A DNA stretch of 64,000 bases from Escherichia phage vB_Eco_QOTSP: the sequence record OY720014. One strand, 5' to 3'. This document shows, piece by piece, positions 7,336-53,564 of this stretch. The position numbers and the translations under genes are program-made. Below the pieces are notes generated by a model. It saw only the letters and a list, made by a program, of their open reading frames with translations. It was not told the DNA's origin and did no database searches. Position 1 is the first letter of the stretch, and each line of letters begins with the position of its first letter.

Positions 7336-7336
<1 letters not shown>
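6611..7336 (+). CDS. 1: gp1 deoxynucleoside monophosphate kinase (241 aa)
   Basis: P-loop GVKRSGKDT near N-terminus; internal ATG after GAGGAGA gives 241 aa. Confidence 0.9.
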
Positions 7337-8033
<697 letters not shown>

Positions 8034-8044
8034 TTTCACAAAGT

Positions 8045-8076
8045 TGTTTACATACTGATGAGGTAGTGATACTATT
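8045..8076 (+). promoter_or_regulatory. early promoter within a stem-loop (PeSL-type)
   Basis: GTTTAC -35, about 17 bp spacer, TGaTACTAT -10 embedded in inverted repeat GAGGTAGTGATACTATTACCTC. Confidence 0.6.
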
Positions 8077-8106
8077 ACCTCATCAAAATTAATTAGGAAA
8101 ATAAAA

Positions 8107-8364
8107 ATGAAAACTTTCAAAGAGTTTGCTACAGAAACTATTATCACTGAATCTTCTCATGGTATGGAAGTAAAGCTTGGAATGGCTTTAGCTGAAGCTG
8201 AGCGTCTTTTTTCTCGTATTAAAGAACTTGCTGCTGCAGTCGATCCTTCATCTTTTAAAGGAGACCAAACTAAAGTTAAAGCACTTTTAGCATTATGCTC
8301 TGATGCAGGAGAAATCGCTAAGAACGGTTCTAAGATGAAGAAACGATTAGAAGATTTAAAATAA
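8107..8364 (+). CDS. internal-protein-like small protein with variant capsid-targeting N-terminus (85 aa)
   Basis: N-terminus MKTFKEFATE resembles the T4 internal-protein targeting sequence MKTYQEFIAEA; own promoter. Confidence 0.5.
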   Translation: MKTFKEFATETIITESSHGMEVKLGMALAEAERLFSRIKELAAAVDPSSFKGDQTKVKALLALCSDAGEIAKNGSKMKKRLEDLK

Positions 8365-8376
8365 TTTCACAAAGTT

Positions 8377-8410
8377 GTTTACACGGGGTTTTAGTAGTGA
8401 TACTATTACC
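8377..8410 (+). promoter_or_regulatory. early promoter (PeSL-type)
   Basis: GTTTAC -35 and TGATACTAT -10 inside a palindrome. Confidence 0.6.
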
Positions 8411-8424
8411 CTATCAAAACAAAT

Positions 8425-8676
8425 GTGAAATTGGAGAATAAAATGAAAACGTATCAAGAATTTATTGCTGAAGCTGCTGATGTAAAAGTTGAGTTTATTT
8501 ACATTGGCAAGAAAGATAAAATGGGCGAAATGCCTCATGGAGTTCTTCGTGATGCATTAGATAATTTCGGTCAACTCGCCGCAGAAGATTACGGTGATAA
8601 AATTGTTGTTACTGGTCCGGCTGCAGTTATTGAAAAATGGGCAGCAGAAAATAAATCAATTTTTCGTAAAAAATGA
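8425..8676 (+). CDS. ipI: internal protein I-like (83 aa)
   Basis: Begins with exact capsid-targeting sequence MKTYQEFIAEA; position between 57B and tRNAs as for T4 ipI. Confidence 0.6.
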   Translation: MKLENKMKTYQEFIAEAADVKVEFIYIGKKDKMGEMPHGVLRDALDNFGQLAAEDYGDKIVVTGPAAVIEKWAAENKSIFRKK

Positions 8677-8712
8677 GTTTACTTTTAGATAGGGTAGTGA
8701 TACTATTACCCT
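8677..8712 (+). promoter_or_regulatory. early promoter (PeSL-type)
   Basis: GTTTAC then perfect palindrome ATAGGGTAGTGATACTATTACCCTAT containing the -10. Confidence 0.6.
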
Positions 8713-8734
8713 ATCAACTACTGAGGAGAATAAA

Positions 8735-8920
8735 ATGAAACGTTGTGAATTAATTCGAAATGTTGCTATTGCAATTTCTGCTTCCGCTTTTAGTTTTTCA
8801 ATGTTTGTTGGATTTATATGCGGATTATTAACTACAGCAGAAAATGTGTTTTCACTTGTAGTAGCATTTTTAATTGGTTTAATTGCTATCGTTATGGATA
8901 AAATTTCTAAAGGTGAATAA
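8735..8920 (+). CDS. small hydrophobic membrane protein (61 aa)
   Basis: ORF after GAGGAGAATAAAATG; mostly hydrophobic residues. Confidence 0.45.
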   Translation: MKRCELIRNVAIAISASAFSFSMFVGFICGLLTTAENVFSLVVAFLIGLIAIVMDKISKGE

Positions 8921-9331
8921 ATGAGTATTAACGAATATTATGTTTATGCCGGGGATTATGCAAATCCTTCTCATTTTGAAGGTAATTTAATACCTGATAA
9001 AGTTTTTAATACTCCTTTTGAAGCGTGGAGTTGGATTGAAAGTAAAAATGGATTTTCTTACCGTTATGTTGAAGTAACTGATTGGAGAGGAACTAAATAT
9101 CCTAAAGACCATTATTACGTAAATCCATCTAAGGTAAATTTTCTTTTATTCGCAGGTGATAATTATTATCCTTGTGGTGGATATGATGATTTAATTGCGT
9201 ATGCTGAAACAGAAGATAAACTGCGTGATATCATTAAAGAAAATGAAAATAAACCGGATTATGGTTCCAATCGCTTTGACTGGTGGCAAATCGTAAATGC
9301 CCATACTCATGCTATCGTTGATAGAGGCTGA
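8921..9331 (+). CDS. hypothetical protein (136 aa)
   Basis: ORF abutting the previous stop; no recognisable motif. Confidence 0.5.
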   Translation: MSINEYYVYAGDYANPSHFEGNLIPDKVFNTPFEAWSWIESKNGFSYRYVEVTDWRGTKYPKDHYYVNPSKVNFLLFAGDNYYPCGGYDDLIAYAETEDKLRDIIKENENKPDYGSNRFDWWQIVNAHTHAIVDRG

Positions 9332-9405
9332 CAATGATTCTTTATGCTAAAGTACTACCTTATAGGAATGATATTGCTTAAATTAATATTGAGGTAGCTG
9401 AGACT

Positions 9406-9786
9406 ATGAAATTAATTAAATCGGGTGGAACCAGATGGGTACTACTAACACGTAAGTATGCTATTAAGTTCCCTATCCCCAAGACATGGAAACACTTCGT
9501 GCAGGGTATGCTCAGCAATCTTACAGAAGGTCAGTGGAAGGGGTATGATAACAAGCACCTATGCCCAATAGCATACTCAAACAGATTTGGTCTCATGGTT
9601 GTGATGCACAAAGCAGAGCCAGTTGAGGATAAGGAGCTTTTTAAATCTGATTTGCAAAAGCTCTATAATGATGTTGATGGTGATGAATGCAGAACGCTTG
9701 ACCGTGATTTCTTTGAGTATGATGCCTTTCCAAAGAACTTTGGCTACTACAAAGGTAGATTGGTCAAGATAGACTACGGAGTGTGA
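9406..9786 (+). CDS. hypothetical protein on an inserted, higher-GC cassette (126 aa)
   Basis: ORF with own GAGG RBS; codon usage visibly more G/C-rich than neighbours; flanked by direct repeats at about 9328-9354 and 9783-9809. Confidence 0.55.
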   Translation: MKLIKSGGTRWVLLTRKYAIKFPIPKTWKHFVQGMLSNLTEGQWKGYDNKHLCPIAYSNRFGLMVVMHKAEPVEDKELFKSDLQKLYNDVDGDECRTLDRDFFEYDAFPKNFGYYKGRLVKIDYGV

Positions 9787-9788
9787 TA

Positions 9789-10079
9789 ATGATTCTTTAT
9801 GCAAAAGTATCATCCATTGAAAATGGATATAAATATGATCAAGAAGCAGCTAAAGCCTTGATTGATGATTATGGCATTTTAACATGTTTTGAAGTTGAAA
9901 AGGTTTACATTGACCGTTCATCTTCTCAGGTTAAATTAGTAAAAGAAGACCGTAAATTTAATACAGTAAATTTTGATTTCTTTATTGAAACAGAAAAAGG
10001 TCCTCTTGAATATGATATTTTCAAGAATCCTTTGGGTCTTGAATGTATTCAGAAAACGTATATTAATGCAGCGTGGTGA
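9789..10079 (+). CDS. hypothetical protein (96 aa)
   Basis: ATG at 9789 (MILYAKV...); its first ~22 nt are duplicated upstream of the inserted cassette. Confidence 0.5.
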   Translation: MILYAKVSSIENGYKYDQEAAKALIDDYGILTCFEVEKVYIDRSSSQVKLVKEDRKFNTVNFDFFIETEKGPLEYDIFKNPLGLECIQKTYINAAW

Positions 10080-10676
10080 AAATGAATATTTGTTTAGGTA
10101 CTACAATTCCGCAGGGTTACGTAATTGATGTCACTACCTGGGAAAATGATGGTGACAACTATAAAACTAAAACACTGTTTGGCGTAGAAGAGCATGAAAT
10201 CTTACAATTCCAATATCTTTTAAAGAAGTTTAAAAGCAGACATTCTAGTACTAAAGCTGAACGTTATTGTGGTAATGGCTTGTTCAGCGAGCAATCGCTT
10301 TTTATTTATGAATACTTGGTTGAAGGACTGTTCTCAGAACAACTTTATCCAGAATTCATTAAAAAGGTAGCAATCGCTTTTTATTTATGAATACTTGGTT
10401 GAAGGACTGTTCTCAGAACAACTTTATCCAGAATTCATTAAAAAGGTCTTTGACATAGAAGTTGACCTTGGTAATAAATCCGAAGAAGACGAAGAACGTG
10501 TATTTGACTTATTCTTTGTGAATGGTAATAAAGTGCTTGAAGGACTTATTAATATTTTAGGCAGTGCTTCTGAGTATTATGATTATGATTTTTTGCGTGT
10601 AGTTGAGAGTGTTAAATACTCTTATATAGAAAAAGAAATTGTTTTGCCGACCGTTAAAATGTTTAATTTGCTTTAA
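10073..10676 (+). pseudogene. hypothetical gene split in two by a 79-bp perfect tandem duplication (ORFs 10073-10390 and 10395-10676)
   Basis: Units 10290-10368 and 10369-10447 are identical; 79 is not a multiple of 3, so the first ORF terminates in copy 2 and the second re-reads the same peptide (LVEGLFSEQLYPEFIKKV) from a TTG. Confidence 0.5.
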
Positions 10677-10762: not shown

Positions 10763-10835
10763 TGGGAATTAGCCAAGTTGGTAAGGCACTGGATTTTGAT
10801 TCCAGGATGCAAAGGTTCGAGTCCTTTATTCCCAG
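10763..10835 (+). tRNA. tRNA-Gln (anticodon UUG); no encoded CCA
   Basis: Cloverleaf by eye: acceptor TGGGAAT/ATTCCCA, anticodon stem CTGGA/TCCAG, loop TTTTGAT, T-loop GGTTCGAGTCC. Confidence 0.8.
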
Positions 10836-10836
10836 C

Positions 10837-10923
10837 GCGAGAATGGTCAAATTGGTAAAGGCACAGCACTTAAAATGCTGCGGAATGATTTCCTTGTGGG
10901 TTCGAGTCCCACTTCTCGCACCA
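10837..10923 (+). tRNA. tRNA-Leu (anticodon UAA), long variable arm
   Basis: Acceptor GCGAGAA/TTCTCGC, anticodon loop CTTAAAA, long variable arm, encoded CCA. Confidence 0.8.
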
Positions 10924-10928
10924 AATTT

Positions 10929-11002
<74 letters not shown>

Positions 11003-11048
11003 ATTTATGACTCGTCGTGAGACGCTCAGTTCTTTATTAGGGACTGAT

Positions 11049-11657
11049 ATGCATTTTTATCTTTATAAAATAACAAATAAAATTAATAATAAAATTTATA
11101 TTGGTGTGCATTCTACCGAAAATTTAGATGATGGATATATGGGTTCTGGTAAATTATTAAAAAGAGCCCAAGATAAATATGGTATAGAAAATTTTTCTAA
11201 AGAAATATTAGAGTATTTTGACGATAAAGAATCTATGCTTGAAGCCGAGAAAAATATTGTCACAGAAGAGTTTTTAAATAGACCAGATGTGTATAATTTA
11301 AAACTTGGAGGTGAAGGTGGATGGGATCATATAAATAATTATCCTATGACAGATCAGCAACGCGAATTAATTTCATTGGGTGTTAAAAAGGCGCATTCTA
11401 ACGGAAAATTAAAAGGATGGTCTTCAAATGGATTAATGAAGAATGGCTTTGCTGGTAAAACTCATTCTCAAGAAGCTAAACGTAAAATAGCAAAAGCAAA
11501 CGAAGCAAAAGTTTCTGCGGATGAAAGAAAAAGAAGAATAGAAATTTCTAAATTATATGATTTTTCTAAACGTGGCGAATTGTCTAAATATGCTAAGCAT
11601 ATTGGCGTAAGTCATACTCAAGCAAAAAGAATTCTAAATCAAATTAACAATATATAA
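11049..11657 (+). mobile_element. segB: GIY-YIG homing endonuclease (SegB-like) inside the tRNA cluster
   Basis: N-terminal FYLYKITNKINNKIYIGV GIY-YIG motif and basic C-terminal DNA-binding region; splits the tRNA genes; track ORF begins at 11007, ATG at 11049 preferred. Confidence 0.8.
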
Positions 11658-11663
11658 ATATTT

Positions 11664-11753
11664 GGAGGCGTGGCAGAGTGGTTTAATGCACCGGTCTTGA
11701 AAACCGGCAGTCGCTCCGGCGACTCATAGGTTCAAATCCTATCGCCTCCGCCA
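11664..11753 (+). tRNA. tRNA-Ser (anticodon UGA), long variable arm
   Basis: Acceptor GGAGGCG/CGCCTCC, anticodon stem CCGGT/ACCGG with loop CTTGAAA, encoded CCA. Confidence 0.8.
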
Positions 11754-11759
11754 GTTTTT

Positions 11760-11835
11760 GCTGATTTAGCTCAGTAGGTAGAGCACCTCACTTGTAATGA
11801 GGACGTCGGCGGTTCGATTCCGTCAATCAGCACCA
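11760..11835 (+). tRNA. tRNA-Thr (anticodon UGU)
   Basis: Acceptor GCTGATT/AATCAGC, anticodon stem CCTCA/TGAGG with loop CTTGTAA, encoded CCA. Confidence 0.8.
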
Positions 11836-11836
11836 A

Positions 11837-11911
11837 GGCCCTGTAGCTGGAAGGTTCAAGCAAGCGACTCATAATCGCCAGATGGTGGTTCAATTCCACC
11901 CAGGGCCACCA
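11837..11911 (+). tRNA. tRNA with CAU anticodon (Ile, lysidine-type as in T4, or Met)
   Basis: Acceptor GGCCCTG/CAGGGCC, anticodon loop CTCATAA, T-arm GGTGG/CCACC, encoded CCA. Confidence 0.7.
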
Positions 11912-11920
11912 AATTAATTT

Positions 11921-12007
11921 GGGGAGTTATCCCGTAGAGGTAGCGGTGTGGACTGTAAATTCATTGTCATTGCGACTCGGGTGGTTCGACTCCACCACTC
12001 CCCACCA
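11921..12007 (+). tRNA. class-II tRNA-like gene, candidate tRNA-Tyr (anticodon GUA)
   Basis: Acceptor GGGGAGT/ACTCCCC, anticodon loop CTGTAAA, long variable arm, T-arm GGTGG TTCGACT CCACC, CCA; anticodon stem has two G-U pairs. Confidence 0.55.
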
Positions 12008-12011
12008 ATTT

Positions 12012-12086
12012 GGATGTGTAGCTCAATGGCAGAGCGATCGCCTGTTAAGCGATTGGTTATAGGTTCGAATCCTATCACGTCCGCCA
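12012..12086 (+). tRNA. tRNA-Asn (anticodon GUU)
   Basis: Acceptor GGATGTG/CACGTCC, D-stem GCTC/GAGC, anticodon stem ATCGC/GCGAT with loop CTGTTAA, encoded CCA. Confidence 0.7.
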
Positions 12087-12200
12087 AATTTGTGACAACT
12101 GTCACATTAATATCTACTTGACGCGATTATAGGGGTTGAACTGATCACTCTTCTCTTAATTTCGTGTGAAGACATCTTGATTGTTGGAGTAGGTATTAAT

Positions 12201-12276
12201 GTGGCCGTAGTTCAGTTGGTAGAACTCGAGATTGTGATTCTCGTAGTCATGGGTTCGACTCCCATCGGTCACCCCA
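12201..12276 (+). tRNA. tRNA-His (anticodon GUG)
   Basis: Acceptor GTGGCCG/CGGTCAC, anticodon stem CGAGA/TCTCG with loop TTGTGAT, discriminator C, CCA. Confidence 0.7.
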
Positions 12277-12280
12277 ATTA

Positions 12281-12356
12281 CGGGGCATAGCTCAGAAGGA
12301 AGAGCAAGGACCTTCTAAGTCCTAGGTCGTAGGTTCGATCCCTACTGCCTCGACCA
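12281..12356 (+). tRNA. tRNA-Arg (anticodon UCU)
   Basis: Acceptor CGGGGCA/TGCCTCG, anticodon stem AGGAC/GTCCT with loop CTTCTAA, encoded CCA. Confidence 0.75.
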
Positions 12357-30298: not shown

Positions 30299-30396
30299 TT
30301 CATAAGAGGCCTTCTATGACAAAAAGGCAGTTCAGAAATAGATTATATGGACTGCCATCAAAAAGATGACTAGAATTAAACTGGTAAATGGAGGTA

Positions 30397-30702
30397 ATGA
30401 TGTTATACTCAAAGGCTCGTGAAATTTATGAAACTAAAATTAAAGAAGCAGTATTTCAGTTCGCAACAACGATGCGATGGACAAATGATTGGGAGTATTC
30501 AAAAAATCATAAGAAGCCCTTGGTGACAAGAAAGGCTCATATGTTAGTGTTAATAGACCGTGAGCAGATTAAAGCCCGAGAAGCCCTCCAGAATCATAAA
30601 AAGGCTGCCTTTGAATGGTTTATGGATAACACTGCTCCTGAGACTAAGAAAGCAGTGAGCGCGTGGTTCAGTGGAAAAAATTGTGAAAGAAGTTTCTTTT
30701 AG
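30397..30702 (+). CDS. hypothetical protein (about 101 aa)
   Basis: ATG after GGAGG; track ORF starts at 30388. Confidence 0.45.
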   Translation: MMLYSKAREIYETKIKEAVFQFATTMRWTNDWEYSKNHKKPLVTRKAHMLVLIDREQIKAREALQNHKKAAFEWFMDNTAPETKKAVSAWFSGKNCERSFF

Positions 30703-40735: not shown

Positions 40736-41047
40736 ATGATTAGTTTTGAGCGGTATGTGGTAGAGAGTTGGAAGGGTTTTGATATGTTCGGTAATGACTA
40801 TTATTTTTACGAATGTAGTCTAAATCCTAGTTTTTGGGCTGGACGTGAACGAGATCTCGAAGAAATTAATGCTCGTGCCGAATTGTTAGGTGAACTGCCT
40901 ACGGTTTATTTTACCTTTGATGCATCTGGATTTGTTATCCAGGTTTATTTTCCTGAAGAAAACTCTGGTGAGGATTCTGTTAATCCTCCTTATTGGGCTT
41001 ACCAAGGAATTATTTCTCGTGGAACAAAACTCGAACTTAAAGAATAA
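40736..41047 (+). CDS. hypothetical protein (103 aa)
   Basis: ORF; its 3' half overlaps the only in-frame initiator of the nrdH frame. Confidence 0.5.
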   Translation: MISFERYVVESWKGFDMFGNDYYFYECSLNPSFWAGRERDLEEINARAELLGELPTVYFTFDASGFVIQVYFPEENSGEDSVNPPYWAYQGIISRGTKLELKE

Positions 41048-41342
41048 GATTGAAGTCTATGGAATTCCAGATGAAGTAGGTCGTTGTCCTGGATGTCAAT
41101 CAGTTACAAAACTTCTAAAGGAGCTCAATGCTCCTTTTACTTTCTATAAAGTTCTTACTAATAATGGTAAGATTGAGTACGATCGCCCATTGATTGTATC
41201 TCTTGCCAAACGCGCCGGATTCACATCTCTTAATATTCGGTATCCTGTCATTTTCATTAATGATTCTAGACAAAAGAACATTAAACACTTCAAAGAAACT
41301 CTCATTTCACTTGGATATGATAGAGATATCATAGAAGATTAA
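40890..41342 (+). CDS. nrdH: glutaredoxin-like NrdH; conserved domain begins near 41046, start codon unclear
   Basis: Conserved KIEVYGIPDEVGRCPGCQS (CPGC active site) has no ATG/GTG/TTG just upstream; frame open back to GTG at 40890. Confidence 0.6.
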   Translation: MNCLRFILPLMHLDLLSRFIFLKKTLVRILLILLIGLTKELFLVEQNSNLKNKIEVYGIPDEVGRCPGCQSVTKLLKELNAPFTFYKVLTNNGKIEYDRPLIVSLAKRAGFTSLNIRYPVIFINDSRQKNIKHFKETLISLGYDRDIIED

Positions 41343-52948: not shown

Positions 52949-53317
52949 ATGATTGAAATTACTCTTAAAAAACCTGAAGATTTTCTGAAAGTAAAAGAAA
53001 CTTTGACTCGTATGGGAATTGCTAATAATAAAGATAAAGTTCTGTATCAGTCCTGTCATATTCTTCAGAAAAAAGGACTATACTATATCGTTCATTTTAA
53101 AGAAATGCTTCGTATGGATGGCCGTCAAGTTGAAATGACAGAAGAAGATGAAGTTCGTCGTGATTCGATTGCATGGCTATTAGAAGATTGGGGACTGATT
53201 GAAATCGTTCCTGGTCAAAGAACTTTTATGAAAGATTTAACTAATAACTTCCGAGTTATTTCTTTTAAACAAAAACATGAATGGAAACTCGTTCCTAAAT
53301 ATACGATTGGTAATTAA
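52949..53317 (+). CDS. regA: RegA translational repressor (122 aa)
   Basis: 122 aa; MIEITLKKPEDFLKVKETLTRMGIANNKDKVLYQSCHILQKKGLYYIVHFKEM... Confidence 0.92.
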   Translation: MIEITLKKPEDFLKVKETLTRMGIANNKDKVLYQSCHILQKKGLYYIVHFKEMLRMDGRQVEMTEEDEVRRDSIAWLLEDWGLIEIVPGQRTFMKDLTNNFRVISFKQKHEWKLVPKYTIGN

Positions 53318-53327
53318 GGTAAATTAT

Positions 53328-53564
53328 ATGACACAATCAGAGATTCAGTTTACCGAAGCTTTTCTAATATTCGAAAATCTAAAACAAACATATGGTCTGT
53401 CTTCTACCCAACTGGTTTTTGACCTCCCGGAAGATAAACAAATAGAATTCCAAAAAGAATTCCAACGATTAGTTTACCCACGCCAACGCGCATTTCATGC
53501 GATTATCAAAACCACAAATACAGATGGCAAGTCCGTTATATCGCGTCGTACAATAGAAATTTAA
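53328..53564 (+). CDS. hypothetical small protein (78 aa)
   Basis: ATG after AAGGTAAATTAT; lies between regA and gene 43. Confidence 0.4.
   Translation: MTQSEIQFTEAFLIFENLKQTYGLSSTQLVFDLPEDKQIEFQKEFQRLVYPRQRAFHAIIKTTNTDGKSVISRRTIEI

Follow-up and report, generated by a model that had tools for sequence, protein, structure and literature searches.

A foreign single-gene cassette at the tRNA.3/tRNA.2 junction of a T4-like phage and the predicted kinase-like core of its product

A foreign cassette at the tRNA.3/tRNA.2 junction

The stretch of DNA analyzed here, 64,000 nucleotides of Escherichia phage vB_Eco_QOTSP (sequence record OY720014; hereafter the window), belongs to a Tequatrovirus (T4-like phage) and carries at positions 9355-9783 a foreign single-gene cassette, placed exactly at the junction between the stop codon of tRNA.3 and the start codon of tRNA.2, as the two flanking genes are named according to the RB32 annotation. 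The gene encodes a protein of 126 amino acids (aa), for which structure modelling confidently predicts a universal protein-kinase-like core and which we therefore call the mini-kinase. The comparisons reported below indicate a recent horizontal insertion of the cassette. Taken as a whole, we consider it rather likely that a foreign cassette was inserted at this site and that its kinase-core product serves as an early phosphotransferase factor.

A preliminary description of the locus, made from the sequence alone, had proposed that a gene was recently inserted between near-identical direct repeats of about 26 bp, duplicating the 5' end of the downstream gene. The repeats are present with slightly corrected coordinates, as TGACAATGATTCTTTATGCTAAAGTA at 9329-9354 and TGATAATGATTCTTTATGCAAAAGTA at 9784-9809, with two mismatches and 429 bp between them, and can be extended to 31 nt with 27/31 identical positions (9324-9354 and 9779-9809, spacing 455). 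No third copy of the 26-mer was found in the window and no match occurred in 100 dinucleotide-preserving shuffles. The TGA stop codon of tRNA.3 (9329-9331) forms the first three nucleotides of the left copy, which opens, as had been supposed, only a stub open reading frame (ORF) of 15 codons plus stop, MILYAKVLPYRNDIA, at 9334-9381; according to the RB32 alignment, the first 7 codons duplicate the start of tRNA.2 and the remainder comes from the donor-derived leader. The second copy was likewise recognized correctly as the genuine start of the downstream gene, since the ATG at 9789 is the true start of tRNA.2, whose product (MILYAKV...) matches PHROG 2023 over positions 1-94 of 95, and tRNA.2 keeps the same coupling of stop codon, 2 nt and ATG that is seen at empty sites. 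That the repeat is due to chance and the ORF is not a gene can be given practically no credit: the shortness of the ORF, and nothing else, speaks for it, and it is already refuted by the shuffles, by about 2,000 homologous clusters and by a predicted fold with a predicted local distance difference test (pLDDT) value of 93.

Sequences matching the flanks of the insertion were found in 848 phage records, which come for the most part from T4-like phages (genus Tequatrovirus), Escherichia and Shigella phages among them. Only 9 of these records (about 1%) carry the insert, at 99.1-100% identity, and they correspond to seven phages, namely vB_Eco_EL, PaulHMueller (Bas45), ESh17, PhiZZ30, G10400, G4507 and ECP52. 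Both junctions are identical in all carriers, pointing to a single ancestral event; in PaulHMueller the two repeat copies are perfect (26/26), and the Bas45 protein, bas45_0262, is identical to that of the window. The backgrounds of the carriers differ, the sequence past tRNA.2 varying among them and the right flank (tRNA.2) being 92-96% identical, below the value of the insert, which shows that the cassette later reached several otherwise different tequatrovirus backgrounds. The inspection of empty sites, suggested in the preliminary description, returned the single junction GGCTGATAATGATTCTTTATGCTAAAGTATCATCC in teqhad, with the 26-mer occurring once, and variants of the single 26-mer junction in RB18 and RB32. 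This sporadic distribution shows the accessory status of the gene, again in agreement with the earlier proposal.

The codon statistics of the ORF at 9406-9786 were compared with those of the other 85 non-nested plus-strand ORFs of the window. Its GC content at third codon positions (GC3), 0.452, is the highest of the 86 (others: mean 0.249, sd 0.044, maximum 0.394; z=+4.6) and its codon adaptation index (CAI), 0.489, is the lowest (others: 0.679, sd 0.051; z=-3.7), bearing out the reported excess of G/C-ending codons over the neighbouring genes; the GC content at codon positions 1 and 2 is ordinary (0.393). The gene is thus neither spread throughout the phage family nor ordinary in its codon usage, and the rare carriers, the single-copy empty sites and the extreme codon statistics together uphold the recent insertion of a foreign cassette with duplication of the 5' end of tRNA.2.

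The opposite history, in which an ancestor already had the gene here and most tequatroviruses later lost it by deletion between the 26-bp repeats, is very unlikely and largely refuted. Loss as such is to be expected and could account for some of the empty sites, since T4 recombination makes do with less than 50 bp of homology (PMC2839356) and can act on direct repeats of 26-31 bp. However, the duplicated 5' end of tRNA.2 arises by insertion only, the codon usage is unameliorated, carriers differ less in the insert than in the right flank, just about 1% of the records contain the insert, and its closest relatives, non-coding leader included, reside in unrelated phage families.

Donor-type relatives and proposed route of insertion

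Outside the tequatroviruses, genes with 74-78% DNA identity to the mini-kinase gene were found in phi G17 (Gamaleyavirus, N4-like), in Moonfish, and in A7_1 and A5-4 (Vequintavirinae, rV5-like), while the gene of GaoY1-9D is 66% identical. The similarity to phi G17 extends over a 47-nt leader upstream of the ORF; within the leader of the cassette this match starts at about 9359, and the TGAGGT motif, which overlaps a GAGG Shine-Dalgarno sequence at 9391-9394, is conserved. The GC content of the ORF (41%) falls among the values of the donor-like loci (40-43%), the window as a whole showing 34.9%. A closer donor was sought among metagenomic relatives, which reach 83-85% amino-acid identity and share neither the leader nor the flanks; the actual donor has therefore not been sampled.

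The boundaries of the donor-type genes show microhomology with the insertion site, consisting of TGAnnATGATT and AAAG(T/C)A. At the end of the gene, the donor-type sequence ...GTnTGACTATGATT, containing its own stop codon, 2 nt and the start of the next gene, resembles the recipient GGCTGATAATGATT, and in the alignment the donor leader ...CCAAAGCACCATCTTATAG resembles the recipient ...GCTAAAGTA. In the route that we propose, the right crossover would have paired the donor ...TGAnnATGATT with the recipient TGAnAATGATT, and the left crossover the donor leader ...AAAG(C/T)AC with the recipient ...GCTAAAGTA; integration of a small circle bearing such a junction by a Campbell-type event would be equivalent. 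The left crossover would fall downstream of the right one on the recipient sequence, so that 26 bp would be duplicated, and since both new junctions keep the stop codon, 2 nt and ATG, translational coupling into tRNA.2 would be preserved, the harmless 15-codon stub arising as a by-product.

The insertion is a textbook example of a process known already, the gain of genes in hyperplastic regions of T-even phages, where moron-type acquisitions have been described (Comeau et al. 2014, PMC4122927). It is also an unusually clean natural example of a T-even phage gaining a gene from an unrelated phage family, in which filled and empty sites, the donor-type boundary and the microhomologies can all be seen together. 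The repeats left around the cassette are long enough for T4 recombination, for which less than 50 bp of homology is sufficient (cited in PMC2839356), to excise or move it, so that excision and loss should be permitted. In addition, the adjacent Seg endonuclease could promote co-conversion of the cassette into related phages. SegB has been shown to drive double-strand-break-dependent segmental amplification of anti-defence loci, and SegB-driven recombination has been shown for the region in question (2026 paper, PMC13096335); recombination of this type may be relevant to the spread of the cassette. An autonomous mobile element (homing endonuclease, transposon or insertion sequence) was considered and rejected, the kinase-fold protein being the only ORF in the 455-bp unit. 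No endonuclease or transposase gene occurs within this unit, the nearest being the separate Seg gene at 11007-11657; inverted terminal repeats were not searched for.

The region just upstream contains three copies of a PeSL-like motif (early promoter plus stem-loop), GTTTAC...GTAGTGATACTATTACC..ATCAA, at 8046-8086, 8377-8417 and 8677-8717. The internal-protein-like genes, two in number (8107-8364 and 8425-8676), are each preceded by one copy, and the third copy precedes tRNA.4; the first two copies extend to a 95-nt repeat with a spacing of 331 nt, and the RB32 annotation reports a 43-bp direct repeat flanking Ip7/Ip9 at the corresponding place. This arrangement suggests that the internal-protein-like genes are shuffled cassettes themselves. 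Arbiol et al. (2010, PMC2839356) connected PeSL elements with the shuffling of cassettes and the formation of mini-circles in T4-type phages. The mini-kinase cassette is like PeSL cassettes in being a single ORFan between short direct repeats, in its location within a hyperplastic region and in its presence in some but not others of a set of near-identical phages; PeSL-like motifs, those at 8046, 8377 and 8677, also lie just upstream. Unlike in PeSL cassettes, however, the flanking repeats are the duplicated stop/start junction of two coding genes, the insert brings no promoter or terminator, and the donor comes from a different phage family. The latter point argues for a first event by microhomology and not by shared PeSLs, and, as the repeats are not PeSLs, the case resembles PeSL shuffling without being an instance of it.

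As for expression, a sigma-70 scan returned nothing promoter-like in the leader that precedes the ORF and, in the insert, three plus-strand matches, all inside the ORF, for a total of 8 matches against a shuffle expectation of 9.1. A MotA-box-like TGCTT at 9375-9379 was dismissed on visual inspection, as no -10 element stands at the proper distance from it. The cassette is without a convincing promoter or terminator of its own, and no terminator-like site was found between the 8677-8717 motif and position 10278. Judging from the T4 early-promoter consensus and from published work on PeSLs (PMC2839356), the 8677-8717 motif is the probable promoter of a unit comprising tRNA.4, tRNA.3, the insert and tRNA.2, and the mini-kinase gene would be read through from this early promoter and stem-loop.

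The mini-kinase family and its predicted activity

The preliminary description had recognized no motif in the protein and had called for a structure prediction. This prediction gave a confident AlphaFold2 model (pLDDT 93.2, predicted template modelling score 0.83) with a kinase-like core, and the statement that the protein lacks a recognizable motif did not hold, since the beta3 Lys, the alphaC Glu and the DFG-type Asp are invariant in the family, the acidic loop residue is always present and the loop Asn is mostly kept. The predicted core comprises a five-stranded N-terminal lobe, helix C, a hinge, helix E, a catalytic loop and a Mg-binding loop. Foldseek searches against the PDB returned TTK, Ark1 (TMq 0.63) and OspG, and a fold search of BFVD returned phage and giant-virus kinases. 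K21 lies in a predicted strand (18-23) and E41 in a helix (28-42), and the two residues would correspond to the kinase Lys/Glu pair. Their distance of 20 residues compares with 19 between K72 and E91, which we take to be the equivalent pair of PKA. The D-x-x-x-x-N arrangement of the catalytic loop is provided by D106 and N111, aligned with HSDLKPAN of TTK, RDLKPEN of PKA and RDVKPAN of PknB, and D123 aligns with the DFG Asp of TTK and PKA. Along the sequence, the kinase-like motifs are GGTRW, YAIKFP, E41, DAFPKN and KIDYG, with G6-G7, R10, K21, E41, D106, N111 and D123-Y-G as key residues.

A search of the PDB with a profile of 138 family sequences returned 25 weak matches (E 0.06-0.3), 23 of which were kinases, and placed the family pattern sDakpeNfGy...iDYg on HSDLKPANF...IDFG of TTK, with D106, N111 and D123 on the HSD Asp, the Asn and the DFG Asp respectively. 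Alignment by hhalign with PKA and PknB led to the same register. Two other searches yielded spurious results, a phmmer match to the MS2 coat protein among PDB sequences (E 0.009) and one chance match of a 37-sequence profile. By predicted fold and catalytic residues, the protein thus belongs to the protein-kinase-like superfamily, although the features of the C-terminal lobe (C-lobe) and the curated sequence models fail.

Two rounds of homologue search followed by an exhaustive profile search gathered 1,989 representatives (50% identity clusters) at E<=1e-3 and 1,086 at E<=1e-10. The median length in the family is 124 aa; among the 150 best listed members nearly all measure 107-150 aa, and the match runs to the C-terminus. 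Conservation was counted in an alignment of 138 diverse members taken from these cluster representatives. All 138 members share G7, R10, K21, P23, N38, E41 and D123. Residue 106 is acidic throughout (Asp in 103, Glu in 35), residue 111 is Asn in 108 members and Ser in the other 30, and D123 is followed by Y in 131 and then by G or A. The family consensus of the catalytic loop, D-x-K-P-x-N-F/Y-G, is the Hanks Ser/Thr-kinase signature. A basic residue at D+2 occurs in 109 members. In the subfamily of the window protein the loop Lys stands at D+4 (DAFPKN) instead of D+2 in 26 of 27 close relatives, and across the family the two positions are almost mutually exclusive; no basic residue at all is present in the loop of 19 members. 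Beyond the DFG-type Asp, the tail has a median of 3 aa, the window protein ending at residue 126.

The family occurs mainly in phages. One distant member (P0066, L022 792-1184, ENA contig k141_3118952, 153.6 kb) lies directly upstream of Cas6 and Cas3-like genes, in what may be a phage-borne or plasmid-borne CRISPR-Cas locus. Another (P0060, L020 3001-3411, JGI contig, 361 kb) lies between genes for a tyrosine integrase and an ArdC-type anti-restriction protein, near a relaxase gene and NikA, indicating that the family extends beyond phages to conjugative elements. A literature search returned no study devoted to it, and no informative domain fusion was found among its longer members. The long forms of OBP and Kc263 (267-273 aa) were considered as full-length kinases and rejected, as they lack D106 and their additional 130 aa contain no C-lobe motifs such as APE; these forms have no Pfam match.

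The family thus keeps the catalytic residues of protein kinases within about 120 residues, throughout some 2,000 clusters, and discards the whole C-lobe. After D123 there is no activation segment and no helix F, the chain stopping 3 residues further on. The minimal protein-kinase-like enzymes of solved structure, i.e. the tRNA 2'-kinase Ark1/ArkI (8yv5, 7vnx), Bud32 (8unk, 3en9), Rio1/Rio2 and the effector kinases OspG (4bvu) and HopBF1 (6pwd), keep helices after the DFG motif and measure at least 171-178 residues, whereas the mini-kinases end about 3 residues after the DFG-type Asp; no significant sequence similarity was found between the two groups. In comparison with the Hanks-type kinases PknB (1mru), TTK/Mps1 and PKA, the mini-kinase lacks the His and Arg of the HRD motif, the APE motif and helices F-I, its subfamily has the loop Lys shifted from D+2 to D+4, and the Pfam Pkinase model is not matched.

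That so diverse a family keeps the full catalytic set speaks for catalysis more than for mere binding, and from these residues we lean slightly towards the protein being an ATP-dependent phosphotransferase. A free-standing enzyme of about 15 kDa would bind ATP-Mg and transfer phosphate, drawing its substrate specificity from its own small surface, from oligomerization or from a partner. Its target would most probably be a macromolecule of the host or of the phage, modified early in infection, and the enzyme itself would be dispensable, contributing to fitness or to counter-defence. There is some support for a protein target, since the D-x-K-P-x-N loop suggests an origin among protein Ser/Thr kinases. 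A counter-defence role appears plausible from the neighbourhood (Acb1, internal-protein genes and tRNAs) and from the precedent of T7, whose gp0.7 acts, like JSS1_004, as a phage kinase with broad counter-defence activity (bioRxiv 10.1101/2024.12.20.629319). Both are early-expressed, dispensable, phage-encoded kinase-fold proteins, as proposed for the mini-kinase. However, the T7 kinase comprises a complete kinase domain (about 240 aa) and a nucleic-acid-binding tail and is assigned to phrog_2828 (same source), whereas the mini-kinase belongs to phrog_4301, and a PHROG search revealed no homology between the mini-kinase and gp0.7-type kinases.

Several observations weigh against this account. 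Helix F and the rest of the C-lobe organize the catalytic spine and substrate binding in every characterized kinase, so that activity of the mini-kinase as a monomer is not assured, and the smallest solved relatives returned by the searches (Ark1, OspG, HopBF1 and Bud32) have PDB chains of 171-178 residues. Sequence methods place the protein in no kinase family at a significant E-value, the best PDB profile match having E 0.06. Pfam gave no kinase family for the window protein or 37 relatives, with sub-threshold matches only (DUF3440 and, for one member, PIP49_C at E 0.2), and NCBIfam gave no match; the only PHROG match, phrog_4301, is annotated as of unknown function, and the family is annotated as hypothetical bar a few automatic "kinase" labels. 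PADLOC had no match for the window protein or four distant relatives, an absence that is weak evidence because PADLOC covers defence and not anti-defence systems. The gene neighbourhoods in other phages are mostly uninformative (about 18 independent neighbourhoods, mostly with hypothetical neighbours). As to the insertion itself, the closest relative outside the tequatroviruses is only 74-78% identical, and the exact lengths of the microhomologies are therefore uncertain.

The missing C-lobe, activation segment and helix F would also suit a non-catalytic nucleotide binder or pseudokinase. Such a protein might soak up ATP or signalling nucleotides like a sponge, or bind a host protein and serve as its decoy or scaffold, the kinase core then being no more than a binding module. 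The persistence of the OBP and Kc263 long forms despite the absence of the catalytic Asp and the 19 members without a basic residue in the catalytic loop are consistent with such a role, and nucleotide sponges are common in phage counter-defence, Acb1, which degrades rather than sequesters such signals, being encoded 1.4 kb upstream. Nevertheless, K21, E41 and D123 do not vary in 138 diverse members, which also keep an acidic residue at position 106 and N or S at position 111, and binding alone rarely demands all of these, notably the acidic loop residue and a Lys that can be relocated between D+2 and D+4. We consequently regard a purely binding function as unlikely.

An RNA substrate also finds some support. 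In two unrelated phages the homologue is the immediate neighbour of an RNA ligase gene, in two others a metallophosphoesterase gene lies nearby, and in one the homologue adjoins an ASCH-domain gene; moreover, the gene of the window sits inside a tRNA cluster, and the tRNA 2'-kinase Ark1 is among the best structural matches. The protein might then be an RNA kinase, phosphorylating 5'-OH ends for ligation or the 2'-OH of tRNA, and thus repairing or shielding tRNAs against anticodon-nuclease defences. This lead was, however, noticed after the fact, in a census of about 18 neighbourhoods that is small and poorly annotated, and we judge such an activity distinctly improbable.

Returning to the phosphotransferase, a bolder version of it holds that the 107-150-aa proteins are self-sufficient, active "half-kinases", traded as single-gene cassettes by virulent phages to neutralize host immunity. 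We regard this version as doubtful. If true, the half-kinases, active with no C-lobe at all, would be the smallest enzymes of the protein-kinase-like fold, and would possibly phosphorylate tRNA or RNA ends or, promiscuously, defence proteins as the T7 kinase does; RNA-end phosphorylation would explain both the landing in a tRNA cluster and the copies beside RNA ligase and phosphoesterase genes. Active mini-kinases would redefine the minimal requirements for the kinase fold and add a portable enzymatic module to the phage repertoire of counter-defence or host takeover, a matter of interest for kinase structural biology and for phage-host conflict alike. The question is directly testable in isogenic natural pairs, such as Bas45/PaulHMueller with the gene and teqhad-type phages without it, Bas45 being a member of the BASEL collection.

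Genomic context of the cassette

The gene order of the region, drawn from Pfam, PHROG and the RB32 annotation, is given in Table 1. This part of T-even genomes is well known to be variable, and with Acb1 only 1.4 kb upstream the cassette is placed amid known counter-defence and accessory genes.

Table 1. Features of the cassette and of the surrounding region (window coordinates).
Feature	Position	Strand	Remarks
gp57A	7336-7578		Upstream of insertion
Acb1, anti-CBASS phosphodiesterase	7578-8033		Pfam PF23474, E 2.6e-60; 1.4 kb upstream of insertion
Internal-protein-like small genes (two)	8107-8364 and 8425-8676		
Third PeSL-like copy (GTTTAC...TGATACTAT...)	8677-8717	+	Just upstream of tRNA.4; probable promoter
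tRNA.4	8735-8920		
tRNA.3 homologue	8921-9331	+	Upstream flank; RB32 annotation; PHROG 1411, E 9e-51
Left repeat copy	9329-9354	+	tRNA.3 stop, 2 nt and first 21 nt of tRNA.2-type coding sequence
Stub ORF	9334-9381	+	15 codons and stop
Donor-derived leader	9355-9405	+	Homologous to intergenic leader of phi G17 gene
Mini-kinase gene	9406-9786	+	126 aa; PHROG 4301
Right repeat copy	9784-9809	+	Mini-kinase stop TGA, 2 nt and genuine tRNA.2 start
tRNA.2 homologue, intact	9789-10079	+	Downstream flank; RB32 annotation; PHROG 2023, positions 1-94 of 95
RB32ORF135c homologue			After tRNA.2
tRNA-Gln, tRNA-Leu, tRNA-Gly			After RB32ORF135c homologue
GIY-YIG/NUMOD3 Seg-type homing endonuclease	11007-11657		Between tRNA-Gly and tRNA-Ser
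tRNA cluster	10763-12356		10 genes, seven past the Seg gene

Downstream of tRNA.2, the RB32ORF135c homologue contains an exact 79-bp tandem duplication (10290-10368 and 10369-10447). As 79 is not a multiple of 3, the gene is frameshifted and split into two ORFs, 10073-10390 and 10395-10676, the homologue being intact, with 516 nt, in PaulHMueller, ESh17, teqhad and RB18. The duplication occurs in none of the listed records among 173 matches, and the junction query maps to a single copy of 79-80 bp; it is either a private mutation of the window phage or an assembly artefact, and the SegB-type recombination mentioned above may be relevant to it as well.

Finally, the next most atypical ORFs of the window by codon statistics are those at 30388-30702 (GC3 0.394, CAI 0.554), 53277-53564 (CAI 0.539) and 40920-41342 (GC3 0.336, CAI 0.562), which may represent further horizontally acquired genes.

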